Origin: an uncultured bacterium | Lineage (GTDB): Bacteria; Omnitrophota; Gorgyraeia; Ghiorseimicrobiales; Ghiorseimicrobiaceae | Assembly: GCA_913009335.1 (NCBI GenBank) | Contig: CAJVXN010000001.1 | Coordinates: 71,709 to 135,708, forward strand | Direction of reading: 5' to 3' | DNA: 64,000 nucleotides | Shown: piece by piece, positions 1,278 to 23,821 of the stretch | Numbering within the stretch: position 1 is the first letter of the stretch | Layout: each line of letters opens with the position of its first letter | Translations under genes and position numbers: made by a program | The notes under the pieces: model-generated | Seen by the model: the letters and a program-made list of their open reading frames with translations, nothing else | The model's database searches: none | Told to the model about the DNA's origin: nothing

Positions 1278-3945
1278 AATTACACTTACAATCAACGCAA
1301 TCCCGATAAAGGCCGATAGGAATATAAGCGTATTACAGGCAGCGCTAAAAAATAATATTTACATCCCTCATCTTTGCTATAATCCCGATTTGAAAGTAGC
1401 CGGCGTGTGCCGGTTATGTATAGTTGAGGTCAAAGACCGGAAGCTGACTACCTCATGTAATCTAAAAGTCGAAGAAGGCCTTATTATTACAACAGACAGC
1501 CCGCAGATTAAACAATTACGCCGTGTTATCATAGAATTACTTATTACAAACTATCAAGGAAACTACCCTAAGCTTAGTGAAACTGATGATTCCCAACTTC
1601 GAAAAGTCGCCGCTTATGTTGAAATAAAACCCAATCGATTAAGAAGATTAAGGGGACCTACTAAAATAATTCCTATTGATAAATCAAATCCATTCTTTAG
1701 GCGAGACCATAATAAATGCGTACTCTGTGGCATATGCGTTAGAACCTGCCGGGAGCTTCAAAAGGTAAGTTGTATCGATTTCGCATTCCGAGGATATGAT
1801 ACTAAAGTCAGCACATTCGCGAATAAGCCCATAGCAGAATCTAATTGCGAATCTTGCGGAGAATGCGTCATGCGATGCCCAACAGGAGCACTATCACCCA
1901 AAAAATTACAGACGGCATCACGTAAAACTAAAACCATTTGCTCTTATTGTGGGGTTGGATGCGGTATGTATCTAGGAGTTAAAGGTAAAAAAATCGTCAG
2001 TGTAATCGGTGATAAAGATAATCCTGTAAATCACGGCAGTCTATGCGTAAAGGGGCGCTTTGGTTACGATTTTATTAACCACCCAGAGCGTTTAACCTCT
2101 CCCCTAATTAAGAAAAACGGAAAATTCATCAGGTCTAGCTGGGAAGAAGCATTAAAAGTTATTACGAAAAAATTCTCCATCTACCGGGGAGATAAATTTG
2201 CTACCCTATCTTCCGCTAAATGCACCAATGAAGAAAATTATCTCATTCAGAAGTTTACCAGAGCAGTAATGGGCTCAAACCATATAGACCACTGCGCCCG
2301 ACTCTGCCATGCGCCTACGGTCGCGGGTCTTACTCAAAGCTTCGGTAGTGGCGCTATGACAAACTCAATTAACGAAATCGGTAAAGCTGACTGTATCTTA
2401 GCTATAGGCACTAATACCACATCGGCTCATCCCATAATCAGCCTCCAGATAAAAAATGCGGCAGAAAACGGGGCAAAAATTATTATAGCTAATCCCAAAG
2501 AAATTGATCTGTGCTCCTTCGCCGATATTTTCCTGCAGCATAAGCCCGGCAGTGACGTAGCATTACTTATGGGCATGATGCGCGTTATAGTCGAAGAAAA
2601 ACTTTATGATGCAACATTCATAAAAAACCACTGTGAAAATTTTGAAAGTTTTAAAAAATCACTGGGTAATTTTAACCAAGATTTTGTTGAACGTACCACA
2701 GGTGTGGCTTTTCGCGATATAGCAAAAGCTGCCCGTCTTTATGCGAAATATAAACCATCAACTATTCTCTTTGCCATGGGAATTACACAGCACTCACACG
2801 GCACAGATAACGTATTGGCCACCAGCAATCTAGCAATGCTTACCGATAATATTGGCAAGCCATCAACAGGCGTTAATCCATTGCGTGGACAGAATAACGT
2901 TCAAGGGGCATGCGATATGGGAGCCTTGCCTAACGTCTACTCCGGATATCAAAAAGTAAACATGCCGAATATAAGAAAAAAATTTGAATTAGCATGGAAA
3001 TGCAAACTACCCTCATCCCCCGGACTAACTCACGTTGAAATATTTGAAGCTATATACAATAAAAAAATTAAGGCTCTTTATTTAGTTGGCGAAAACCCTA
3101 TTATAAGTGAAGCCAATTCCAATCATGTTAAAAATGCTATAAAAAAAATAGATTTTTTCGTGGTCCAGGATATATTTCTAACAGAAACAGCAAAATTAGC
3201 CGACGTAGTTCTGCCTGCTGCCAGCTTCGCGGAGAAAAATGGCACATTCACCAATACCGAACGCCGCGTACAACGTGTACAAAAAGCAATCGAACCTATA
3301 GGCAAGGCAAAACCGGATTGGCAAATAACATGTGCAATTGCCAAAAAAATGAAGGCCAAAGGTTTTGACTTTTCAAACCCCAAACAAATAATGAAAGAAA
3401 TCGCAAGCCTTACACCAAGCTACAAAGGCATAACCTACGAGCGGCTAGAAAATAGTGGTTTACAGTGGCCCTGTCTAAATAAAAAACATCCCGGCACGCC
3501 TATTTTACATGTTGAACGCTTTGCCACTCCAAATGGAAAAGGTAAATTTATGCCATTAGAATATAAACCACCTGCTGAAGTCCCTGATAGTAAATATCCT
3601 TTCATTTTCACTACCGATCGCAGCCTCTTTCACTTCCACACAAGCACTATGTCGCGCAGAGTAGAAGGCCTTGATATATTGAACGGGGAAGAATTCCTTA
3701 ATATTAATCCAAAAGATGCTGCCGGAATAGGAATTACCGATGGCGAGATGGTAAAAGTCTGCTCCCGCCGCGGAAGAATCAAGGTTAGAGCAAAATTAAC
3801 AGATATCTGCCCACAAGGAGTAGCTTCAATGACGTTTCATTTTGCTGAAACCCCAACGAATGTCCTTACCAATTCAGTCCTTGACCCTGTAGCAAAAATC
3901 CCCGAAACAAAAGTATGCGCCGTACAAATAAAAAAAATAAAATAG
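1270..3945 (+). CDS. fdhA: Molybdopterin formate dehydrogenase catalytic (alpha) subunit with NuoG-like N-terminus (2Fe-2S, 4Fe-4S clusters); Cys-type (no Sec)
   Basis: 891 aa. N-terminal 2Fe-2S ferredoxin-like cysteines (CYNPDLKVAGVCRLC). 4Fe-4S motifs CVLCGICVRTC and CESCGECVMRCP. MopB Fe4S4 motif CSYCGVGCGM. Active-site region HIDHCARLCHAPTVAGL carries Cys where E. coli FdhF has Sec. C-terminal molybdopterin dinucleotide-binding domain. Confidence 0.85.
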   Translation: MDKITLTINAIPIKADRNISVLQAALKNNIYIPHLCYNPDLKVAGVCRLCIVEVKDRKLTTSCNLKVEEGLIITTDSPQIKQLRRVIIELLITNYQGNYPKLSETDDSQLRKVAAYVEIKPNRLRRLRGPTKIIPIDKSNPFFRRDHNKCVLCGICVRTCRELQKVSCIDFAFRGYDTKVSTFANKPIAESNCESCGECVMRCPTGALSPKKLQTASRKTKTICSYCGVGCGMYLGVKGKKIVSVIGDKDNPVNHGSLCVKGRFGYDFINHPERLTSPLIKKNGKFIRSSWEEALKVITKKFSIYRGDKFATLSSAKCTNEENYLIQKFTRAVMGSNHIDHCARLCHAPTVAGLTQSFGSGAMTNSINEIGKADCILAIGTNTTSAHPIISLQIKNAAENGAKIIIANPKEIDLCSFADIFLQHKPGSDVALLMGMMRVIVEEKLYDATFIKNHCENFESFKKSLGNFNQDFVERTTGVAFRDIAKAARLYAKYKPSTILFAMGITQHSHGTDNVLATSNLAMLTDNIGKPSTGVNPLRGQNNVQGACDMGALPNVYSGYQKVNMPNIRKKFELAWKCKLPSSPGLTHVEIFEAIYNKKIKALYLVGENPIISEANSNHVKNAIKKIDFFVVQDIFLTETAKLADVVLPAASFAEKNGTFTNTERRVQRVQKAIEPIGKAKPDWQITCAIAKKMKAKGFDFSNPKQIMKEIASLTPSYKGITYERLENSGLQWPCLNKKHPGTPILHVERFATPNGKGKFMPLEYKPPAEVPDSKYPFIFTTDRSLFHFHTSTMSRRVEGLDILNGEEFLNINPKDAAGIGITDGEMVKVCSRRGRIKVRAKLTDICPQGVASMTFHFAETPTNVLTNSVLDPVAKIPETKVCAVQIKKIK

Positions 3946-4105: not shown

Positions 4106-6211
4106 TTAGTTTATCAAAATTTTATATACCTGGCCATCAGTGAAAAACGGATCTCCTGTGAAATTCCGTCCAAAGATTGGCTCAACGAATTTTTGTTTTT
4201 TAAAATCTGTGAAAACATTGGCCTTCTTCATATCATTAAAAAGAAATTCTCGCTCAGTGTCTATGTCCGGTCTTATCTTATGAGTAACTCCCCACTTTAT
4301 ATTGGTGTCTAAACTTACCGTTCCGATATAAATTTGTTTTCCGTCTTCGGTCATATAATTTGTTTTCCAAAATCTTGCATGGTGACGTTCGCGAACATTA
4401 TCTGATTTTGTAGGTTTTTCAAAACCAAAGTCATGTATCTGCTTGTTCCAAAATGACGGCGTCATGGGCGCTTGAGGATATGCTTGTTTTAAGAAAGCCG
4501 CTTTCGCCGTTCTCAACAGTGAAGAAATATTTATCTTATCCGCCAAGAACCAGCCGGAACTTACAAGAGATTTTATGAGTTCCCCATCATTCTTTGTAAG
4601 AATTATAAAACTAAAAGGTTCTTGTCTTTCTCCGGTTAGTGTTTCCGTATATTTTAATTGTTCATCTGAAAAAATATCATTTACATTTTGCACAACGGCC
4701 TCTTTTTGTAAAATTAAAGGTTGATAAACTTGCGGATGATAATTAACAGCAAACATAACAAAAAACACAAGTGAAGCAAAAATCAAAATTGTTGAAATAA
4801 TCCGCGTTTTTATTTGCGGTGAAAATGGGGTACCGTTTTTCTTTATCGAAAACATCCATTCTGAAATACTGATACTTATGATGAGCCATAATGCGCCAAC
4901 CAAATAACCGCCCCATATATCACTTACATAATGAACGCCGAGATACAGGCGGCTAAAGCCGATAACTAATATAAGCGCGATACCAGCAAAAAATAAGTTT
5001 ATTTTTGTTTTCCATCGCTTCGCACCGCGAACAAGCACATATATCAAAAACCCGTAAAAGGCGACCGCTATTGTGGCATGCCCGCTTGGAAAAGAAAAAG
5101 AATGTTCCGCGTAAACTGCCAATTCCGGCCGCGGACGATGAAAAGCAATTTTCCCTAATTTTGTAAAAACTTCACTGCCTATAATAGAAAGAAGTAGTGG
5201 CGCAATATATAATCGTTTACGCCATAGCCATAAAATACCAACAGTTGCAAAAGTAAAACCCAAGACAACTTGCCATTTACCGAGTAATGTAATCCAAAGG
5301 GAAAATTTTGTTATTTCAACACTTCTAAATACAGCAAGTAAATTAGCAATGCGAGTATCCACGGAAACAATAACATCTGCCGTGATGATATCTTCAATAA
5401 TTCCGATAAAAAGAGAAACGGTGTAGATAAACGCAAACAGTAGAAGTGTTGCCGGCAAACCAAAAAATTTACTTTTATCCAACCGTCCTTTTATAAATTT
5501 AAAAAATAAAGCATGTTTCTTTGCCAGTTTTCTAACATCGGGGTTATCTATAATTGCTTGTTTTATTGAATGACATATGGAAATTAAAAAGGAAAAAATT
5601 TGCTTGCCCCTTTTAACTATAATCCACTTAAATATATAAAGAATAAAAATAAAACCAACAAAGGCCGATATAAATACACTTCCCCTTGTTGACCACAAAG
5701 CAACCGCTTCCCATGCTTGCCCAAAGAAAAATCCGATCAGTAAAAAAGTAGTTGCCCAGGCAAAACCGCTAAGGATATTCCATAAAAGAAATCTTTTTCT
5801 GTCCATCTTAAACATTCCGGCAACAAAAGGAATAATTGGCCGTATGGGCCCTACAAATCTACCTAAAAAAATACTCCTCCCGCCATATTTACTAAAAAAA
5901 GATTTTCCTCTATCTAAGTATTTTGATTTGAAAATTCTACTGTCATATCTGAAGATTTTTTTTACATGGCCACCTAGATAATAACTCAAGAGGTCACCAG
6001 CGATTGCGCCAATCGCGGCAAACCAAATTGCATCTCCCAAATCCAAAAATCCTTTTGCTGAAATAAAACCTACTAAGATAACAAAAAACGTGCCGGGGAT
6101 TATAATACCGACAAATGCTAGTGATTCTAAAAAGGATACAAGCAAAACTAGCCAGTATCCTAAAAGGCAAAAATGTTCAATCGTCGGCAATAGGGAAATT
6201 AAAAAATCCAT
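4106..6211 (-). CDS. DedA/VTT-domain - PAP2 phosphatase fusion membrane protein with extra ~240-aa C-terminal domain
   Basis: 701 aa. N-terminal DedA-like multi-TM region (GIIIPGTFFVILVGF...). Central PAP2 motifs KIAFHRPRP, PSGHA and SRLYLGVHYVSDI. C-terminal soluble region without a recognisable motif. Confidence 0.75.
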   Translation of the reverse strand: MDFLISLLPTIEHFCLLGYWLVLLVSFLESLAFVGIIIPGTFFVILVGFISAKGFLDLGDAIWFAAIGAIAGDLLSYYLGGHVKKIFRYDSRIFKSKYLDRGKSFFSKYGGRSIFLGRFVGPIRPIIPFVAGMFKMDRKRFLLWNILSGFAWATTFLLIGFFFGQAWEAVALWSTRGSVFISAFVGFIFILYIFKWIIVKRGKQIFSFLISICHSIKQAIIDNPDVRKLAKKHALFFKFIKGRLDKSKFFGLPATLLLFAFIYTVSLFIGIIEDIITADVIVSVDTRIANLLAVFRSVEITKFSLWITLLGKWQVVLGFTFATVGILWLWRKRLYIAPLLLSIIGSEVFTKLGKIAFHRPRPELAVYAEHSFSFPSGHATIAVAFYGFLIYVLVRGAKRWKTKINLFFAGIALILVIGFSRLYLGVHYVSDIWGGYLVGALWLIISISISEWMFSIKKNGTPFSPQIKTRIISTILIFASLVFFVMFAVNYHPQVYQPLILQKEAVVQNVNDIFSDEQLKYTETLTGERQEPFSFIILTKNDGELIKSLVSSGWFLADKINISSLLRTAKAAFLKQAYPQAPMTPSFWNKQIHDFGFEKPTKSDNVRERHHARFWKTNYMTEDGKQIYIGTVSLDTNIKWGVTHKIRPDIDTEREFLFNDMKKANVFTDFKKQKFVEPIFGRNFTGDPFFTDGQVYKILIN

Positions 6212-16545: not shown

Positions 16546-17607
16546 TTACAGCTCCCGCCAGTATAATATCTTCCCTCTTTCATCAACTACGCAGCGCACT
16601 TGATGCTTGCCCTTTTTATTTTCTAACCTTGCCGTAGACTCAATCGTAAAATTACTGGAATTCGTAGTTAAATTTTGATCTGAAATCGCATTTAATTCCG
16701 CTATCTCAGATTCACTAAACTCAAAAATTCCGCTTAATACCGGGACTATTGACGATACGGCATCAAAAATATTATCATCGTTTGTGCCCGTAATCCCATC
16801 ATCCCCCTGGCGAAAAAGAATAATTCTATCAACGATATATTTCCGCAGGCCCAAAACCGACAAGATGCCGCTTGACGCCGTATTAATATTAATATTACCG
16901 CTACCGTAGATAGTAATATAATTTTTTAGGCGTTCGAATAAATCCACTGTCATACCATTAACTAAAAGAAGTTCTTCAACAACTTCAAATTCAGCATCTT
17001 TTGCTTCGTAAGGAAATTGCGAGTTCCTATAATCTCTATCTTCCGCGCTGCCTAATGGTATAGACAATTCGCTATCGCTATCACGCCAATCAATGATTGA
17101 CGCCGCCAACTCTTGAGCGCCTGTCGCGTCAAACTCAAAAATAATTCGGAACAACCGCCTTAAAACCGCACTAGACGCCGTATTTATATTAATCTTGCTT
17201 TCCTCGTCAACAATTCCATAGCGAAGTTCTGTTACTTTTGTATCATCATTGAAATATTCATAAGAAACGCTAAACGTCCCCTCCCCAACTCTAACCTTTT
17301 TAAATATACTCTTACTATTGCGCCAGTTATCACTTAAACTATCGGGGGTATCCTCCGATGCTTTCCTTAATTCAGTGATCGCGCGCTTAACACCCGCTTC
17401 CGCTATAAGACGCAACTTGCTTCTTTCATCAATCCTGTGTGCCAAACTAATTTTCTGCCTGACGCCGGAGCCTAAAACTACCGCGAATATACTTAGCAAA
17501 CAAAGGGACCAAAGAGCAATTATTAAGATACTACCCCTCTTTTTTTTAATATTATCCGCCAACCGGAATCCTAACAGTTCTAATAAACTCGTTTTTTTGT
17601 AAATCAT
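16546..17607 (-). CDS. gspK: Type II secretion minor pseudopilin GspK-like
   Basis: 353 aa. N-terminal hydrophobic segment SILIIALWSLCLLSIFAVVLG. Two NINTAS helix-hairpin-helix-like motifs (KININTASSAVL and NININTASSGIL) are typical of GspK. Position is at the end of the pseudopilin block. Confidence 0.7.
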   Translation of the reverse strand: MIYKKTSLLELLGFRLADNIKKKRGSILIIALWSLCLLSIFAVVLGSGVRQKISLAHRIDERSKLRLIAEAGVKRAITELRKASEDTPDSLSDNWRNSKSIFKKVRVGEGTFSVSYEYFNDDTKVTELRYGIVDEESKININTASSAVLRRLFRIIFEFDATGAQELAASIIDWRDSDSELSIPLGSAEDRDYRNSQFPYEAKDAEFEVVEELLLVNGMTVDLFERLKNYITIYGSGNININTASSGILSVLGLRKYIVDRIILFRQGDDGITGTNDDNIFDAVSSIVPVLSGIFEFSESEIAELNAISDQNLTTNSSNFTIESTARLENKKGKHQVRCVVDERGKILYWREL

Positions 17608-18187
17608 CTTTAAAAGCTAATTTAATTCGCACCGCAAGAGGCAGCTGCTCGTTTTTCCACTCGTCCTGCCAAACATATTCAGCCATTTCTTTATCATAAA
17701 AATAGTAACTAAATTTTAAACTTTCGATATTCGAAAGCGGCTGCGTAATTACCCCTGGACGCTGTTCATAAATCTGAGTAAAATCTCTTTCTTCCCTGAT
17801 TACAACACCCCTTAACGCGTCATAATTATAAATCATTTCTCCTACGGTTTTCTTATTTAAAGTTTTGCTATTTATAAAAGTCGTAAATATTAGTACATCT
17901 TCTTTACCGGAAAACGTAAGTCCGGAAAATCCAAAACTGTTTCGCAGGCTAGTTGTAAATTTATCAAAAAAAATACTCAAATCCTCTTCTTTAGACTGCT
18001 CGTTCATTCTGTTACGAATCTCAACACCATTACTAAAAGTTGTATACAGAGCAAAAGATATAAACGGTAATATAGCCGCCACAATAAGCACTTCGACCAA
18101 TGTAAACCCCGTTAGAGATAGTCCCGCCTTTGGCGGGACGTCCGTAACAGAAAACCTTTTTAATAATCCTCTATGCTTCATAAACAT
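17552..18187 (-). CDS. Prepilin-type minor pseudopilin (GspJ-like) with long K/R-rich leader
   Basis: Class-III signal motif KAGLSLTG|FTLVEVLIVAAIL. 211 aa. Overlaps gspK-like by 56 nt. Confidence 0.7.
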   Translation of the reverse strand: MFMKHRGLLKRFSVTDVPPKAGLSLTGFTLVEVLIVAAILPFISFALYTTFSNGVEIRNRMNEQSKEEDLSIFFDKFTTSLRNSFGFSGLTFSGKEDVLIFTTFINSKTLNKKTVGEMIYNYDALRGVVIREERDFTQIYEQRPGVITQPLSNIESLKFSYYFYDKEMAEYVWQDEWKNEQLPLAVRIKLAFKDDLQKNEFIRTVRIPVGG

Positions 18188-18237
18188 TGAATTGCCGCGT
18201 AAATACTTTAGTTATTATCTCTAACGGGGTAAAACCC
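18103..18237. repeat. Inverted repeat pair bracketing start codon/leader of pseudopilin gene 17552..18187 (arms gtaaaccccgttagagata / tatctctaacggggtaaaaccc) plus internal hairpin gtcccgcctttggcgggac
   Basis: Arm 1 is at 18103-18121, inside the coding sequence for LSLTGF. Arm 2 is at 18216-18237 in the 5' UTR. In the mRNA, 5'-ccccgttagagat...AUG...atctctaacgggg-3' can pair. The same module recurs at the next two pseudopilin genes. Confidence 0.6.
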
Positions 18238-18292
18238 GATAAAAGCCTCTTACGATATTTTCTATAAACCGGCATCGGTAATTTCTCTCTTA

Positions 18293-18751
18293 TTATATAT
18301 TTGTCGCGTCATATATCGCGTAGGCGTTACGCGAAACTTTTACCTGCCGCTTACCTTCCTGCCAGGTAATTTCCAGATTTATCTCATACATACTATACAT
18401 ATCTTCATCATCTACTAGATTAAAGGATAAATCCCAATTGAATGTTCTATTGCGATCTTCAAACTTACCGTTCCTTAATATATTCGCGCCTGGCCCTAAA
18501 TGCTCTAAATCATCCTGAGTCTGCCAAATTTTCTCATCTGCCCAGCTAGCGAGATTCAAATAGTTAACGTAATAATTGTGTAAATCCAGTGATGACAAAA
18601 ATGTTTCGTGTATTAATACGACCCCCAACAATAAAACCATCGCTGCGATCATTACCTCGAAAAGCGTAAACCCCGTTAGAGATAGTCCCGCCTTAGCGGG
18701 ACGTCTATTGACGATAAAATCTTTTAATAACCGTCTAAATCTCTTAAACAT
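18293..18751 (-). CDS. Prepilin-type minor pseudopilin (GspI/H-like) with long K/R-rich leader
   Basis: RRPAKAGLSLTG|FTLFEVMIAAMVLL. 152 aa. Confidence 0.7.
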   Translation of the reverse strand: MFKRFRRLLKDFIVNRRPAKAGLSLTGFTLFEVMIAAMVLLLGVVLIHETFLSSLDLHNYYVNYLNLASWADEKIWQTQDDLEHLGPGANILRNGKFEDRNRTFNWDLSFNLVDDEDMYSMYEINLEITWQEGKRQVKVSRNAYAIYDATNI

Positions 18752-18845
18752 TGAATTGCCGCGTAAATACTTCGGTCGTTATCTCTAATCCAGAAGGATA
18801 GACCTTACCTGTTCCTTTGAAGGAAGGGTCTAACGGGGTAAATCC
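18666..18845. repeat. Inverted repeat pair at pseudopilin gene 18293..18751; UTR arm split by a 41-nt insertion; hairpin gtcccgccttagcgggac with compensatory loop change
   Basis: Coding arm at 18666-18685. UTR arm ttatctctaa (18779-18788) is separated by an insertion from tctaacggggtaaatcc (18829-18845). The 50 nt at 18741-18790 are near-identical to 18181-18230. Confidence 0.6.
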
Positions 18846-18858
18846 TCCGGCCGTTTTT

Positions 18859-19371
18859 TTATTCCCAATTCGTAATATCATCTGTGCCTTCTGCGCCATC
18901 TTTCCCTAATGAATAAAGATCATAATCAGTCCTATGTTCCCCCGGAGATTTATATTTATATTCTCTACCCCAGGCATCTATAGGTCTTTTCTCTAAATAT
19001 GGACCGTTCCAGTTGATAGCCGAGCTAGATTTACTAAGCAATGCCGCCAGGCCCTCCGATGTCGAGGGAAAATTACCATTATCTAACTCATAAAGTTTTA
19101 ACGCTGTAGCAATGTTCGCCTGAATATCAGTCTTAACCGCGGCAATTCTTGCCTGCTCACTCCTTCCGGTAAGCCTTGGTAATACCATAGCTGCCAATGC
19201 CCCGATAATCACAACCACAAGCATAAGCTCAATAAGAGTAAACCCCGTTAGAGATAAGGTACCGAAGGTGTCTGTCGGTCGTCTTCGACGACCTATCTCT
19301 AACGGGGTAAACCCTATTATCCGCGTGATTTTCTTTACCGATCTTCTAAAATTAATCATTGCCCCCTCCAT
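18859..19371 (-). CDS. gspG: Type II secretion major pseudopilin GspG
   Basis: LSLTG|FTLIELMLVVVIIGALAAMVLPRL, and the GspG-typical C-terminus NGPYL...DAWGREYKYKSPGEHRTDYDLYSLGKDG. The ORF encodes a 45-aa leader that contains a second, degenerate GFTPLEI motif. Confidence 0.85.
   Translation of the reverse strand: MEGAMINFRRSVKKITRIIGFTPLEIGRRRRPTDTFGTLSLTGFTLIELMLVVVIIGALAAMVLPRLTGRSEQARIAAVKTDIQANIATALKLYELDNGNFPSTSEGLAALLSKSSSAINWNGPYLEKRPIDAWGREYKYKSPGEHRTDYDLYSLGKDGAEGTDDITNWE
19238..19314. repeat. Inverted repeat pair inside the annotated 5' end of gspG (15-bp perfect arms) with internal hairpin ggtcgtcgaagacgacc
   Basis: gtaaaccccgttagagata (19238-19256) and tatctctaacggggtaaaccc (19294-19314). 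Both arms lie in frame within the 45-aa leader, encoding IIGFTPLEI and LSLTGFTL. Confidence 0.6.
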
Positions 19372-19385
19372 ATTCTGATAATTAT

Positions 19386-20330
19386 TTATTCTCTCTCTAT
19401 CCCCGCCTCTTGCAACTCACTCTCTAAGTATTCCCGCCATCTATCTTCTAAATCTCTCAAATTTCGTATATAAGACGGATAAGCAAATCTGAATGCTTCT
19501 TCCAGTGATTTCCCGTCGCGTAGTTGACGGCAAAAATGAATGAATCTATCTGTTCCGTATCTCTGAATTAAAAATTCCACCACAGAAACAGACTGCAGAT
19601 AATACGTACTGACTAGTGTATTGGCATCTAAAAATAAAACTCCATCCGCCCCCTTCCTCGTGCGTATAGCGCGAATATAAACCCGCTCTATATCTTTAAG
19701 GCGCCTGACATCCAACGTCATTAAATCATCTATGGAAAGCAGCTTATCCTCCGAGTAAAACTGCATGGCCAGCTTTCTCATTTTAACTCTCTTTACCTCT
19801 TCTGACCACTGCGCGACACCTTCATCCAGCCATAAAGGTATCTCCCCTTTAAAGCCTACGAAATCACGAAATATCAAATGTGCTACTTCATGAGGAAGAA
19901 CAGATTCAATAAATTCCTTACTGAAAACATGGCTTGCAATAAACTTATCCGTATAACTAGCCATACCCTCGGACCACTCGGGTTGCCCGGTTGCCTTTAG
20001 AAAAGAACCCTGATCCGGATACATATAAATTTTCACCCTATTATCCCACAACCAAAACTCTGAATATCTGGGATACCCTAAATTTTTAGCAATCGTCAAA
20101 TAATACTTTTCCGATTTATTCAGTATTTCTTTCGCGAATTTTCCATCACCAGCATGATAAACAATAAAATGCTCGCTGCCTGATTGCTGCCAATCAATAG
20201 CAAGCAATATTTTAAAGGACAAAAAACAAAAAGTCAAAATTAAAAAAATGACCTTCGGAAAATTGATTTTTTTCATCCTTCTGTCGGATTTTAACCCAAA
20301 TTCCGGGTCTAATTTTCCATATCCTAACAT
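19386..20330 (-). CDS. Secreted/membrane-anchored MA-clan zinc metallopeptidase (Peptidase_MA_2-like, HEXXH...E)
   Basis: HEVAHLIF and the downstream WLDEGVAQW are gluzincin motifs. A signal-like segment follows an internal Met (MKKINFPKVIFLILTFCFLSF), so the true start is probably about 20276. The gene sits between gspF and gspG with 3-nt and 14-nt gaps. Confidence 0.6.
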   Translation of the reverse strand: MLGYGKLDPEFGLKSDRRMKKINFPKVIFLILTFCFLSFKILLAIDWQQSGSEHFIVYHAGDGKFAKEILNKSEKYYLTIAKNLGYPRYSEFWLWDNRVKIYMYPDQGSFLKATGQPEWSEGMASYTDKFIASHVFSKEFIESVLPHEVAHLIFRDFVGFKGEIPLWLDEGVAQWSEEVKRVKMRKLAMQFYSEDKLLSIDDLMTLDVRRLKDIERVYIRAIRTRKGADGVLFLDANTLVSTYYLQSVSVVEFLIQRYGTDRFIHFCRQLRDGKSLEEAFRFAYPSYIRNLRDLEDRWREYLESELQEAGIERE

Positions 20331-20333
20331 TTT

Positions 20334-21551
20334 TTATCTCGCCATTACATTAATCTCAAACACCGGAAGCAGCATCGCTACTACAATAAAACCCACAATA
20401 AGGCCGATTACCAAAATCATTAGCGGCTCTAACAAAGAAAACATCACCCGCATCTGCTCTTCAGTGTCGCGTTCATAGCTCGTGGCCACCTCTGCTAAGG
20501 ACTCCTGCAATCTACCTGATTCCTCCCCTACTATGATAAGATTACTCATAAAAGCCGGAATTAATTTTGAACTTTTAAGGCTCCTGCCGAATGAACCCCC
20601 ATGCTCTAATTCTTTACAACTCTTATCTATTACGCCTTTTAAAACCTCATTATCCAATACGGGTATAGACACATGAATCGCACTTAACGCATCAATGCCG
20701 CTCTTTAAGAGAAGCTCTAAGGTACGGCTAAAACGGGCAAGCTCTGCCTTAAGAATAAACTTTCCGAATACGGGAAAATGCAATTGAATCAAACTCATAT
20801 GCGCCTTTCCGGATTTTGTTTTAACAAAACGCGCTACTGTTAAAACAAAGGCCGTTAAAATTATAACTATCCAAAACCACCATCGCCGTAAACCCTCGCT
20901 TATCGCAATCAGCAGCTGCGTAGGTAAAGGTAAATTTTGCCCCATACTAGAGAATATTCCTGTAAGGCGAGGCATCACAAAAACAAGCATAAATATTACG
21001 GTTGCCACTCCTACTATACCCATAAGCACAGGATAAACCAAAGCCATCCGAAAACGGGAAAGCACCTCTTCTTGTTTCGTGCGATAATCCGCGACCCGCA
21101 ATAAAGACGCATCAAGCGAACCAGTATCTTCTCCGGTACGAACAATAGCAATATAAAGATTAGAAAAAACCCGGGGATATTTATTAAGTGCCGCGGAAAA
21201 CTCAAGTCCCTCTTTTATGGAATTATGTATATCAACTATAATACTTTTAAAATTACTGCTTTCTATCTGCTCAGAAATTATGTCCAAGGCATCCAGAATA
21301 GGCACGCCGGATTTTAGAAGACTTGCTAACTGCCGGCTAAAAATAGCAACATCCTTAAATTTCACTTTACCCGAACGCGTCCTTTTAGAGGATACCGCAC
21401 CCTGACCGGAATCGGTAAATTCCTTTACGCGGATAGGAAGGTAACCCATCTGGTGAATCTTTTCAATCGCATCATGCTCTGATTGAGCCTCAAGTTCTCC
21501 TTCTTTTATATCTTCCGGCCCTTTTTTCGCGCGATATTTATATATTGGCAT
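20334..21551 (-). CDS. gspF: Type II secretion / type IV pilus inner-membrane platform protein GspF/PilC
   Basis: 405 aa. Two GspF repeats, each with TM segments (VLMGIVGVATVIFMLVFVMP; EPLMILVIGLIVGFIVVAMLLP). N-terminus is typical of GspF. Confidence 0.85.
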   Translation of the reverse strand: MPIYKYRAKKGPEDIKEGELEAQSEHDAIEKIHQMGYLPIRVKEFTDSGQGAVSSKRTRSGKVKFKDVAIFSRQLASLLKSGVPILDALDIISEQIESSNFKSIIVDIHNSIKEGLEFSAALNKYPRVFSNLYIAIVRTGEDTGSLDASLLRVADYRTKQEEVLSRFRMALVYPVLMGIVGVATVIFMLVFVMPRLTGIFSSMGQNLPLPTQLLIAISEGLRRWWFWIVIILTAFVLTVARFVKTKSGKAHMSLIQLHFPVFGKFILKAELARFSRTLELLLKSGIDALSAIHVSIPVLDNEVLKGVIDKSCKELEHGGSFGRSLKSSKLIPAFMSNLIIVGEESGRLQESLAEVATSYERDTEEQMRVMFSLLEPLMILVIGLIVGFIVVAMLLPVFEINVMAR

Positions 21552-21601
21552 AACATCCTCTCAAACCCCTCCTTTTTAAAACGCGTCCGGAAGGTTTTTA
21601 G

Positions 21602-23821
21602 TTAACCGCTTTTACATATTTTATTGATTCTATTTCTCTCGCTACTAGTCAAATCTAAAAAACAGGCCGCGATTTCATACCTCTCGCCAAGAGTGTTTTC
21701 AGTAGCTCTGACTATTCTGGCCAAACACTCTATGGGCGCCTTGCGATCAAGTAGTTCAATCTTTAATTCCAAAAAGGAGCCTAAGGCATACGGCTCATCC
21801 GCAATGAATAAAACTCCCCCCGCGCTTATATCCTTCGTAACGCTAAAGTGTTCGGGGGCATCATCACGTTTAGATACCTCTAGTTTTGTGCGAAAAACCC
21901 TGTAGCTTATGTTTATCGTAGAATCCAAGCGAGAAAAAACCCTCTTATCTAAAAAACTTAAATCCGGTTTTCGCTGCTCTAGCGCATCGAGGTTATTTTC
22001 TCCTTTTTTTCCGTCTATTTCTATTTTTTCCGCTTCAGACGGATAATCTTGTTCAAATTGTAATGTATTAACGGCTGCCTGCCGGTTATCCGATGTTAAT
22101 AAAGAAGTATCGGACGGGGTCAATCGCATAACCTCTTCAGGGGTGGTGACTCCTGAAATCACCTTGGCCCAACCGTCATGACGCAAAGTACGCATACCTC
22201 TTTGTATAGCGAGATTTTTTATTTGATTTGTAGAAACACGTTTAATAACCAGATCCTTTATCGAATCATCAATCAATAAAATCTCATATACGGATGTCCG
22301 GCCAAAAAAACCGCTAAAATTGCACGTTTCGCATCCTTTACCGCGAAAAATCTTTACTTTACTTTCAGACTTTAATCCAAGCTCTTGAGCAATCTGCTTT
22401 TTAAGTTCAACTGCCGCGTCCTTATCCTCATATTTACAATGCGGACAAATAACGCGCAATAGACGCTGCGCGATAAAGGCTTCTACACTGGAGGCAACTA
22501 AATAAGGTTCCAGCCCTATATCAAGAAGCCTCGCGATACCGCTAGCCGCGTCATTAGTATGCAGAGTCGAGAAAACAAGATGGCCGGTTAAGGCAACGCG
22601 TATGGCAATTTCCGCGGTTTCTAAATCTCTTACTTCTCCAATCATCATTATATCAGGATCGTGCCTTAGAACACTACGCAGGCCCCGCGCAAAATCCAAA
22701 CCAATCTCCGGCATAACCTGTATCTGCGTTACCCCTGTCATCTCGCACTCAATGGGATCTTCTATGGTAATAATTTTACGATCCTTGGTATTGATCTTGC
22801 TTAAGCAGGCATATAAAGTCGTAGTCTTACCTGATCCTGTGGGACCGGTAACAAAAATAATGCCGTGAGGTTCTTGAATTAGTTTTTCGAAAACATCCAG
22901 ATCTATTTTCTGTAAACCCAGCTTTTCCAGGCTATGCAGCATCTGGGTGGGAAGTATTCTTATTACGACACTTTCGCCGAAAGGCGTAGGCATAGTAGAG
23001 ATTCTCAGATCAAGTACTTTATCCTGAATTCTAACCGAAGTCCTGCCATCTTGCGGAAGACGCCGTTCAACAATATTTAACCTGCACATAACCTTAATAC
23101 GTGAAATAATCGCGCTCAAAAAACTAGCCAGCTCATCAGAGGCTTTTACATCAAGAAGTACGCCGTCTATGCGATAACGCAAAGCAACTCCTCCCCGATA
23201 CGGTTCAATATGAATATCGGTAGCGCGTTTCTTATAGGCATCTGAGATTATCTGATTAACAAGTTTTATTACCGAAGCTGCTCCCGCTACCTTTTCGATA
23301 TCCTCAATTTTTCCGCGACCTTTATGGGTAACTTCCGGCACTGCTTCAACGCCTTCAGACGTAATTTTATCAAGTATGGCAGCCGTTGAGCCATAATACT
23401 TCCTAAGCCCCTCCAAAATATCATACTGACGGCAAAGGACTATTTCAATATTATAACCAAGCTGCATACGTATCTCATCTTTTGTCTTTATATCCAACGG
23501 ATATGAGACTGCTATGGTCAAAATATTAGCCTTAATTGCAAGCGGCAAAAAACTATAATAAGAAGCGACTTTTATGGGAATTTTACTGATAACCGACTTA
23601 TCTATAGAAGCTGTTCTTAAATCCGTATATTTTAACTTTAATTTCTTCGCCAGTATTTCTAAGATATCCCGCTCAACAACTATTTGCTTTTTAATCAAAA
23701 CATTATTTAAGGTAAGCTCGGAAAACTCAACTTCCGTTACAACCGAATCCAATACTTCTTTCGAAGCCAATCCTGACTCAATTAATGCCTCGTATAAAAT
23801 TTTATCGTATTTATTAATCAT
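21602..23821 (-). CDS. gspE: GspE/PilB-family secretion ATPase with C-terminal PilZ (c-di-GMP-binding) domain
   Basis: 739 aa. N-terminal GSPII_E_N-like region. Walker A is GPTGSGKTTTLYA. Tetracysteine motif CPHCKYEDKD...CETCNFSG. GspE C-terminus GMRTLRHDGWAKVISGVTTPEEVMRL. An extra ~180 aa carry PilZ motifs RVFSR (RxxxR) and TKDISAGGVLF (DxSxGG). Confidence 0.85.
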   Translation of the reverse strand: MINKYDKILYEALIESGLASKEVLDSVVTEVEFSELTLNNVLIKKQIVVERDILEILAKKLKLKYTDLRTASIDKSVISKIPIKVASYYSFLPLAIKANILTIAVSYPLDIKTKDEIRMQLGYNIEIVLCRQYDILEGLRKYYGSTAAILDKITSEGVEAVPEVTHKGRGKIEDIEKVAGAASVIKLVNQIISDAYKKRATDIHIEPYRGGVALRYRIDGVLLDVKASDELASFLSAIISRIKVMCRLNIVERRLPQDGRTSVRIQDKVLDLRISTMPTPFGESVVIRILPTQMLHSLEKLGLQKIDLDVFEKLIQEPHGIIFVTGPTGSGKTTTLYACLSKINTKDRKIITIEDPIECEMTGVTQIQVMPEIGLDFARGLRSVLRHDPDIMMIGEVRDLETAEIAIRVALTGHLVFSTLHTNDAASGIARLLDIGLEPYLVASSVEAFIAQRLLRVICPHCKYEDKDAAVELKKQIAQELGLKSESKVKIFRGKGCETCNFSGFFGRTSVYEILLIDDSIKDLVIKRVSTNQIKNLAIQRGMRTLRHDGWAKVISGVTTPEEVMRLTPSDTSLLTSDNRQAAVNTLQFEQDYPSEAEKIEIDGKKGENNLDALEQRKPDLSFLDKRVFSRLDSTINISYRVFRTKLEVSKRDDAPEHFSVTKDISAGGVLFIADEPYALGSFLELKIELLDRKAPIECLARIVRATENTLGERYEIAACFLDLTSSERNRINKICKSG

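Follow-up and report, generated by a model that had tools for sequence, protein, structure and literature searches.

This report concerns three consecutive pseudopilin genes on the minus strand of a 64,000-nucleotide stretch of DNA from an uncultured Omnitrophota bacterium (contig CAJVXN010000001.1, positions 71,709 to 135,708), which we call the window; the genes are numbered 1 to 3 in order of coordinate. Comparison with related sequences shows that each of them carries, in the part encoding the prepilin leader, one copy of a mobile element that is small, palindromic and non-autonomous, similar to the miniature transposable elements with inverted repeats known as MITEs, with a 4-bp target duplication. 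We put the probability at about 0.85 that these are mobile-element insertions that are tolerated because they lie within the leader that is cleaved off. An earlier examination of the same letters, referred to below as the sequence-only reading, had noticed a repeated module in these genes and had proposed that it forms an mRNA stem controlling translation or, alternatively, that it is a small intragenic repeat propagated by duplication.

Insertions in three prepilin leaders

In each gene the string GGN-TTT-AC stands before the left arm of the palindrome and again past the right arm, the two copies being 69, 172 and 127 nt apart in genes 3, 2 and 1, respectively. Without the stretch between them, all three genes would encode a canonical prepilin, M…G↓FTL(I/F/V)E (the arrow marks the cleavage site). 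The layout is the same throughout, GGN TTTA/CCCC…GGGG/TTTA CN, with the insertion at the TTTA of the G-F-T codons. Two syntenic operons (loci L269 and L270, GCA_018824145.1), which have the conserved order GspE-PilZ, GspF, Peptidase_MA, GspG, two pseudopilins, GspK and PilMN, contain no insert and have a single TTTA at the orthologous sites (GGG, GGA or GGT followed by TTT ACC). These empty sites show that the TTTA repeats in the window are target duplications. The leaders in the two relatives (MRKRRKKG↓FTLIE; MLRIGSKG↓FTLME or MMSRIGNRG↓FTLME; MPYMSKENKRG↓FTFVE) are homologous, at the nucleotide level as well (…ACGAATTGG…), to short open reading frames (ORFs) that lie upstream in the window. 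Such presence and absence at orthologous sites is what is expected of a MITE. The contig of the window occurs in marine metagenomes, and the window elements are identical in two independent assemblies (L143 and L144).

The orthologs of gene 3 are GspG proteins, 66-87% identical to it. The standard G↓FT motif is present in 104 of the 120 best-matching ones, and 79 of those 104 have a leader of 3-17 aa and no insert. About 12 of the best 120 have independent inserts of the form GFTPLE…(S)LTGFTLIE, which vary in length and sequence, one of them being a tandem pair.

The arms were counted with a 14-nt core, CCCCGTTAGAGATA, over the whole window, with up to two mismatches allowed and 100 shuffles as a control. 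Five matches were found, all exact and all within the three pseudopilin genes, where they are arranged as inverted arms; 0.40 are expected by shuffling, and none of the 100 shuffles attains five. An independent repeat search of the window recovered the same arms. The module described by the sequence-only reading is thus present, and far above chance, and the core has no further match elsewhere in the window. The features are as follows.

18107-18120 (+), 18216-18229 (-), 18671-18684 (+), 19243-19256 (+), 19294-19307 (-): the five matches to CCCCGTTAGAGATA
18859..19359, minus: gene 3, gspG-like major pseudopilin; probable native start ATG 19359, MINFRRSVKKITRIIG↓FT…; annotated alternative start 19371
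19308..19311, minus: left TTTA duplication copy of gene 3, in the native G-F-T codons; empty site GGG TTT ACC in L269 and L270
19243..19307, minus: palindromic element (MITE-like) of gene 3, 65 nt; inverted repeats 19307-19294 and 19256-19243
19293-19277, minus: subterminal hairpin of the gene 3 element, GGTCGTC-GAAG-GACGACC; the second hairpin is decayed
19239..19242, minus: right TTTA duplication copy of gene 3; with the terminal GGGG of the element it rebuilds GGG TTT ACT, G↓F-T
18744..18881, minus: native-leader short ORF of gene 2; ATG 18881, MILRIGNKKTAGG↓FT, continuing into the element
18671..18838, minus: element of gene 2, 168 nt; 172 nt with the TTTA duplication, which is at 18842-18839 and 18670-18667
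18684-18671, 18702-18685 and 18751-18749, minus: right repeat, subterminal hairpin and internal ATG of the gene 2 element
18784..18828, minus: secondary insert, 45 nt, which splits the left inverted repeat of gene 2 after CCCCGTTAGA; direct TTAGA flanks
18293..18751, minus: annotated pseudopilin of gene 2; its start is the ATG within the element, MFKRFRRLLKDFIVNRRPAKAGLSLTG↓FTLFE…
18171..18275, minus: native-leader short ORF of gene 1; ATG 18275, MPVYRKYRKRLLSG↓FT, continuing into the element
18107..18229, minus: element of gene 1, 123 nt; 127 nt with the TTTA duplication, which is at 18233-18230 and 18106-18103
18229-18216 and 18120-18107, minus: inverted repeats of the gene 1 element; internal ATG at 18187-18185
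18139-18121, minus: subterminal hairpin of the gene 1 element, GTCCCGCC-AAA-GGCGGGAC
17552..18187, minus: annotated pseudopilin of gene 1; its start is the ATG within the element, MFMKHRGLLKRFSVTDVPPKAGLSLTG↓FTLVE…

With its duplication, the insert of gene 3 comes to 69 nt, that is, 23 in-frame codons (…TPLEIGRRRRPTDTFGTLSLTG); the family has no commoner length class than this one of 65 nt. The most likely start of this gene, ATG 19359, is preceded by GGAGG 5 nt upstream, and gene callers give a protein of 166 aa on the identical contigs. The element of gene 2 is out of frame with the native leader and contains stops; the stop of the native-leader ORF (TAA 18746-18744) overlaps the internal start (ATGTTTAA). 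This ORF, for which gene callers report a gene of 45 aa on both L143 and L144, is homologous to the leaders MLRIGSKG↓FT and MMSRIGNRG↓FT, and the insert-free ortholog of gene 2 has 128-130 aa. The native-leader ORF of gene 1, homologous to the leader MPYMSKENKRG↓FT, ends at TAG 18173-18171, and the ortholog of gene 1 without an insert has 195-200 aa. The element of gene 1 belongs to a subfamily of 122-130 nt that is found in other pilin genes as well (L148, L174, L187, L206, L151 and L230). The 45-nt secondary insert in gene 2 has no inverted repeats of its own, and no other copy of it is present in any locus examined.

Several details of the sequence-only reading change as a result. The block of about 20 nt that it regarded as common to the three genes is exact in genes 1 and 2 and agrees at 19 of 20 positions in gene 3 (TTATCTC…). 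The reverse-complement copy upstream is inverted over only about 15 nt; the TTTA(C) part of it is the direct repeat flanking the palindrome, i.e., the target duplication. The upstream copies of genes 1 and 2, which had been placed in 5' untranslated regions, sit within the short ORFs that begin with the native leaders, and they are 84% identical over 67 nt instead of nearly identical. The insertion in the second copy, given as 41 nt, measures 45 nt (18828-18784) between direct TTAGA. What was taken for a compensatory change in the hairpins of genes 1 and 2 is an indel of 1 nt, by which a stem of 8 bp becomes one of 7 bp, and true compensatory variation of the subterminal hairpin is found across the wider element family. 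Leaders of 25-45 aa hold for the genes as annotated (27, 27 and 43 aa), and that of gene 3 becomes 39 aa when counted from ATG 19359. The suspicion that starts had been mis-assigned was well founded: genes 1 and 2 have their native starts upstream of those annotated, and gene 3 most likely begins at ATG 19359. We infer that the long leader of gene 3 is a real result of the insert and that those of genes 1 and 2 reflect a shift to a start within the element.

The right end of the element suggests how a pilin could survive such an insertion. Read from the sequence, the terminal …ACGGGG and the duplicated TTTA form the junction ACG GGG TTT ACN, which encodes T-G↓F-T, a new cleavage motif before the hydrophobic mature N-terminus; the old motif reads G-F-T-P-L-E after the insertion. 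All three genes encode …LSLTG↓FTL(V/F/I)E followed by a hydrophobic stretch, with the G at -1, F at +1 and E at +5 of pseudopilins, and orthologs carry the PF07963 N_methyl and T2SSG domains. These are the only three genuine prepilin motifs in the window, and all three are occupied by an element. The whole insert would lie within the cytoplasmic leader that the prepilin peptidase cuts off, which would explain why the insertion is tolerated, and the pilins encoded by the three genes probably still work. In gspG the 69-nt insert would be read through, adding 23 residues to the leader. In genes 1 and 2 the inserts (127 and 172 nt, respectively) would break the frame, and translation would begin at the ATG inside the element. 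This internal start is probably used by termination-reinitiation coupling, which we propose because the native-leader ORF stops 5 nt (gene 2) or 14 nt (gene 1) after the internal ATG. Outside the window, 14 copies contain a stop, and 11 of these have it, in the native frame, at 2-30 nt upstream of the internal ATG or overlapping it. We are less confident of the coupling than of the insertions themselves.

Other genes of the window are noted briefly. The interval 19386-23821 (minus strand) includes a GspE-like ATPase of 739 aa with a C-terminal PilZ domain, as well as a Peptidase_MA_2 gene between gspF and gspG, and both are kept in the syntenic relatives. The interval 30301-55716 (minus strand) is a single ORF of 8471 aa for a giant repetitive protein, with at least three tandem units of about 2.04-2.07 kb, blocks of which are 74-98% identical.

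The element family and its behavior in coding sequence

A species-representative genome collection was scanned with the two-arm pattern CCCCGTTAGAG, 34-94 nt, CTCTAACGGGG, and metagenomes were scanned for pilin junctions, i.e., CTCTAACGGGGTTTAC followed by FTxxE codons. Each scan found at least 120 loci. Among the 80 two-arm matches listed by title, 42 are from Patescibacteria, 14 from Omnitrophota, 10 from Planctomycetota, four are deltaproteobacterial, three are from Nitrospirota, one is from Clostridia and the rest are unclassified. Every copy has the ends CCCCGTTAGAG(A)/…CTCTAACGGGG; the repeats in the window are 14-15 nt long and exact, the left one of gene 2 being interrupted. Element copies are 26-190 nt in length and have no transposase of their own, as is typical of MITEs. 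Neither the repeat sequence nor GIY-YIG (the nuclease domain treated below) combined with MITE-, inverted-repeat-, RPE- or CPR-type terms (both abbreviations are explained below) led to a description of such a family in the full-text literature, and so, the family is apparently undescribed.

Exact direct repeats of 4-5 bp lie immediately outside CCCC…GGGG in 82 of 124 copies, against a chance rate of 1/256. At least 18 flank sequences occur (TTTA/TAAA 34 times, TCAA/TTGA 13, TGAA/TTCA 8, plus 15 others), and the base that follows TTTA is C at 24 of 34 sites. Such varied flanking repeats are the hallmark of an insertion that duplicates its target, here with a preference for TNNA/TTTAC. We also considered TTYA/TRAA as a part of the inverted repeat itself. 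This was rejected, as 79 of the 4-bp matches are direct and one is an exact inverted match, and the empty sites of the window show duplication.

A subterminal hairpin, (G/T)AC-GGYYGCC-loop-GGCRRCC-TRTCTC, is present at 54 of the 382 short-element ends, compared with 2.3 expected by shuffling, and double substitutions occur at all seven of its stem pairs in a set chosen beforehand for perfect stems. Some copies are found in unusual settings. A scan of viral contigs with a 15-mer gave 22 single-arm chance matches and one real copy, L014 (IMG/VR contig 3300031898_000117, 553-611), which is 58 nt long with a CAGA duplication; on this viral-classed contig it directly follows, on the downstream side, a gene for a DNA methyltransferase. 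Tandem arrays consist of two or more elements with one common 4-bp junction (L029 at 2942-3105, L108, L261 and L071), and some arrays precede one pilin gene, whose leader then contains the GFTPLE…SLTG unit two or three times (P0036).

The family displays some clear patterns within coding sequence. For example, on each side just one of the three frames of the inverted repeat is closed by a stop codon, and the length plus 4 is divisible by three in 70 of 126 copies (65 + 4 nt equals 23 codons). Forty-three copies are located in long open frames of non-pilin proteins, where they read TPLE…SLTG or, from the other strand, xPVRD…SNGV. By their Pfam matches these hosts are ordinary proteins. The Pfam domains Sua5/YrdC, GcvT, dihydroorotate dehydrogenase (DHO_dh) and RsmH/MraW span the insert; the RNase R copy lies between the CSD2 and RNB domains, and the copy in a periplasmic-binding protein (PBP) is near the C-terminal end of the domain. 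In-frame, stop-free copies make up 81 of the 118 pilin-linked copies with a detectable left repeat vs. 30 of the 116 non-pilin copies (Fisher p = 4e-11). In 88 of the 105 unique pilin junctions, the pilin frame is open through the element; 16 have a stop and an internal in-frame ATG with a K/R-rich leader, and one has a GTG start. A G↓FT precursor that has a basic leader can thus still be made from all 105 junctions, an argument for continuing selection on these genes.

A bolder interpretation, which we offer tentatively and would not ourselves bet on, is that the family is adapted to life in coding sequence and uses prepilin genes as safe harbors; the elements would be intein-like, dependent on a host protease, and would borrow a promoter and a ribosome-binding site, so that a tiny transposon with nothing but a nuclease could enter a gene and spare its function. 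It is suggested by repeats that leave two of the three frames open on either strand, by a commonest form of exactly 23 codons and by a right end that rebuilds the peptidase site with TTTA.

Alternative explanations

The best of the alternatives, to which we give about one chance in five, accepts the mobile element and changes its local history: one or two arrivals would have been followed by duplication or gene conversion among the paralogs via the GFTLIE-coding sequence. The copies of genes 1 and 2 do form one subfamily, with the 84% identity given above and the same internal ATG context, and the elements occupy an identical codon position in adjacent genes. However, the copy of gene 3 belongs to another subfamily, the 65-nt class, which requires at least two independent arrivals. 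The TTTA duplication is intact in every copy, and each has a separate native leader upstream. Upstream of the element, no homology links genes 1 and 2, so that conversion would lack a 5' anchor. Independent insertion at the same site also recurs in other phyla. The propagated intragenic repeat of the sequence-only reading is close to the mark: the module did propagate, by insertion with target duplication and not by gene duplication.

That the paired arms are an mRNA structure selected to regulate pseudopilin translation, by sequestering the ribosome-binding site and start codon or as an RNA thermometer, was the favored proposal of the sequence-only reading, and we now consider it quite improbable. 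The folding around the starts that it called for does give stems far more stable than shuffled sequences (-43.4 kcal/mol, z = -6.5, with arms 37 nt apart in gene 3; -49.1 kcal/mol, z = -5.5, with arms 95 nt apart in gene 1), the internal ATGs of genes 1 and 2 are enclosed by a 15-bp stem, and the internal hairpins covary across the family. Yet the stem of gene 3 is 3' of the start codon and so cannot sequester the ribosome-binding site. The same arms are found in intergenic sequence and in frame in unrelated genes, on either coding strand and with target duplications, and the module is absent from most orthologous pseudopilin genes, including close orthologs of all three. This is not the strand-specific 5' occurrence in a defined gene set, conserved in orthologs, that marks a cis-regulatory element or RNA thermometer. 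An Rfam scan of 17000-20000 gave only chance-level matches, and the needs of a mobile element account for the conservation of the arms. The mRNA stem would then be a by-product of the inverted repeats, with a possible secondary effect on translation, mainly at the internal ATGs of genes 1 and 2.

Two other ideas have very little in their favor. An invertible segment that switches the pseudopilin genes on and off would fit the 14-15-bp inverted repeats around a short segment holding the working start codon of genes 1 and 2, but its orientation is identical on contigs of independent samples (L143 and L144), no recombinase gene is adjacent, and the variable 4-bp direct repeats and empty orthologous sites point to insertion. 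It is just as hard to believe that the insert is skipped, whether the ribosome bypasses it between the first and the second TTT or the hairpin is excised from the RNA, with the native leader thereby joined straight to the mature sequence: identical GGN-TTT-AC strings do surround a very stable hairpin, removal of 69, 127 or 172 nt would give a canonical prepilin and the native starts are intact, but the open frames and internal starts of the 105 pilin junctions would need no selection if the insert were skipped, the gaps are much longer than the known 50-nt bypass, and we know of no bacterial machinery that ligates after such an excision.

A candidate driver, related systems and significance

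What might move these elements is suggested by a pilin-linked insert of 288 nt (L225), which has an 81-aa ORF between the same repeats that ends through the right repeat as …RFLSLTG. This ORF encodes a GIY-YIG catalytic domain (PF01541, E = 5e-18, residues 1-68) and no other domain. Homologs with 63-79% identity found by tblastn are bounded by the same repeats (L261, L177, L157, L045, L141, L023 and L256), and there are further full-length copies of 277-287 bp (L268, L272, L276, L278 and L284). In the protein database the ORF has at least 5904 homolog clusters. The best 120 homologs are mostly exactly 86 aa long and are 74-93% identical across phyla, their hosts being Omnitrophota, the candidate phyla radiation (CPR), Planctomycetota, WOR-3, Elusimicrobiota and Flavobacteriales; in 84 of the 120 the last residues are the repeat-encoded …(S/P)(L/V)TG. 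In-frame nuclease-pilin fusions are present at P0184, L225 and L157, and the best match among solved structures is UPF0213 BH0048 (E = 2.6e-7). A look at long-range repeat pairs, 0.3-3 kb apart, in the loci examined brought no DDE transposase to light between them.

The short elements are probably deletion derivatives of these GIY-YIG-carrying elements of about 280 bp with the same repeats. By analogy with the Ssn/NTS system described below, the nuclease probably recognizes the repeat and hairpin ends and drives their spread, although we hold this, like the reinitiation coupling, with less confidence than the insertions. It is possible that the short elements retain the start codon of the nuclease gene, but the offset of the ATG from the left end differs, being 18-27 nt in full-length copies and 25-63 nt in most short ones.

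Smaller observations concern the same genes. Mini-copies are nested in the GIY-YIG ORF of two full-length elements, in frame in L157 (oriented 4556-4602) and adding stops in L023 (about 993-1100). Distant small GIY-YIG genes have different CCCC-initiated inverted repeats at L055 (about 2730-2990; repeat CCCCCACACCTAATTTGCTT, TCAA duplication) and L075 (about 3240-3540 and 3670-3920, oriented), which suggests a broader class of nuclease/repeat pairs.

Several points weigh against the account given here. About a quarter of the short copies have no matching flanks, and only three of about 10 full-length GIY-YIG copies have matching 4-bp flanks. The mixed flanks TTTA…TGAA / TTCA…TAAA recur (L027, L048, L061, L106 and L133; L268 and L284); in these elements the right flank provides the stop codon of the nuclease ORF. 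There is no GIY-YIG copy in the window. Five GIY-YIG proteins that were looked at for copies at more than one site gave no direct sign of recent movement of full-length copies: P0161, found on 24 contigs, represents one genomic place, and P0124, P0163, P0199 and P0205 have one context each. We know of no way in which a hydrolytic 86-aa nuclease could carry out strand transfer or integrate DNA alone. The case for deriving short elements from long ones consists of their common ends. In genes 1 and 2 the internal ATG lacks an obvious Shine-Dalgarno sequence, and both movement and start-codon use are read from assembled sequence. Finally, the occupancy of pilin-motif TTTAC sites in the genome loci examined (8 of 15 vs. 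18 of 2137 other TTTAC sites) is inflated because the loci were chosen for containing the element, although its direction is clear.

The system closest to the candidate nuclease is Ssn, a single-domain GIY-YIG enzyme of 94 aa that cuts single-stranded DNA beside a hairpin repeat (Chenal et al. 2025, PMC11893778). The Ssn gene is flanked by hairpin repeats in an architecture "identical to" that of an insertion sequence, and NTS repeats are amplified in Neisseria, Rickettsia and Wolbachia, with 2% of them inside genes (PMC11893778). The family described here has a similarly tiny single-domain GIY-YIG protein (about 90 aa, predicted from sequence), flanking hairpin repeats, amplification and covarying stems. 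Unlike Ssn/NTS, it has a single inverted-repeat pair that bounds the gene, with the ORF running into the right repeat, and it has target duplications, empty sites, a pilin hot spot and frequent in-frame genic copies. Its flanking repeats differ in sequence from SRM, although a GAC-hairpin module adjoins each end, and the SRM consensus HGTCWY…RNCYNB has no match in the window on either strand.

In behavior the elements resemble Rickettsia palindromic elements (RPEs), short palindromic repeats that, according to the account of Ogata et al. (2000) given in PMC10969869, are present in frame within unrelated protein genes without destroying them. The likenesses are the palindromic form, the in-frame position inside ORFs of unrelated function, which is found here as well, and a length that fits the reading frame. 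The differences are an unrelated sequence and hosts that include Omnitrophota, Patescibacteria, Planctomycetota and others; going by hosts and ends, we regard the family as an analogue of the RPEs rather than a member. It also has an 11-12-bp terminal inverted repeat, a 4-bp duplication, a prepilin hot spot and a candidate GIY-YIG autonomous partner. ORF-fusing bacterial MITEs (ERIC, Correia, QMITE1 of Coxiella and Anabaena MITEs; PMC10969869, PMC5896051) are likewise small, with terminal inverted repeats, target duplication, no transposase and occasional in-frame fusions. However, those MITEs are derived from DDE insertion sequences and are lineage-restricted, whereas the present family is found in many phyla with identical 11-bp ends, and its only linked protein is the GIY-YIG nuclease.

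REP/REPIN elements with RAYT and the IS200/IS605 elements also have hairpins beside their termini, a very small nuclease-type enzyme and a short target (TTAC for IS608, TTTAC here). Their HUH/Y1 enzymes act by covalent strand transfer and leave no target duplication, in contrast to the 4-bp duplication and predicted hydrolytic GIY-YIG fold of this family. An analogy can also be drawn with inteins and self-splicing introns, as a mobile insert in coding sequence would leave a functional host protein after its later removal. Here, removal would be by the host prepilin peptidase at a site that the element rebuilds, with no self-splicing. By its sequence, the feature in the window is best described as a MITE that is RPE-like in behavior and Ssn-like in its candidate enzyme.

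The family accounts for some odd annotations in Omnitrophota, Patescibacteria (CPR) and Planctomycetota, such as "prepilin leaders" of great length, orphan ORFs of 45 aa that separate pilin genes, and housekeeping proteins with small in-frame inserts, all of which gene callers should expect. In the hot spot at pilin genes, nature has set up an experiment on the length and structure that prepilin leaders can have and still be processed. If the safe-harbor interpretation, tentative as it is, were true, the host peptidase would remove all of the element-encoded residues, even a whole 86-aa nuclease (L225, L157 and P0184). If the nuclease acts like the Ssn enzymes, the family would provide many natural enzyme/hairpin pairs. 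In conclusion, these elements tie Rickettsia-type in-frame palindromes to an extremely small candidate driver, an 86-aa GIY-YIG protein between 11-bp inverted repeats, and the question of how such palindromic elements move, which has been open since 2000, can now be tested.

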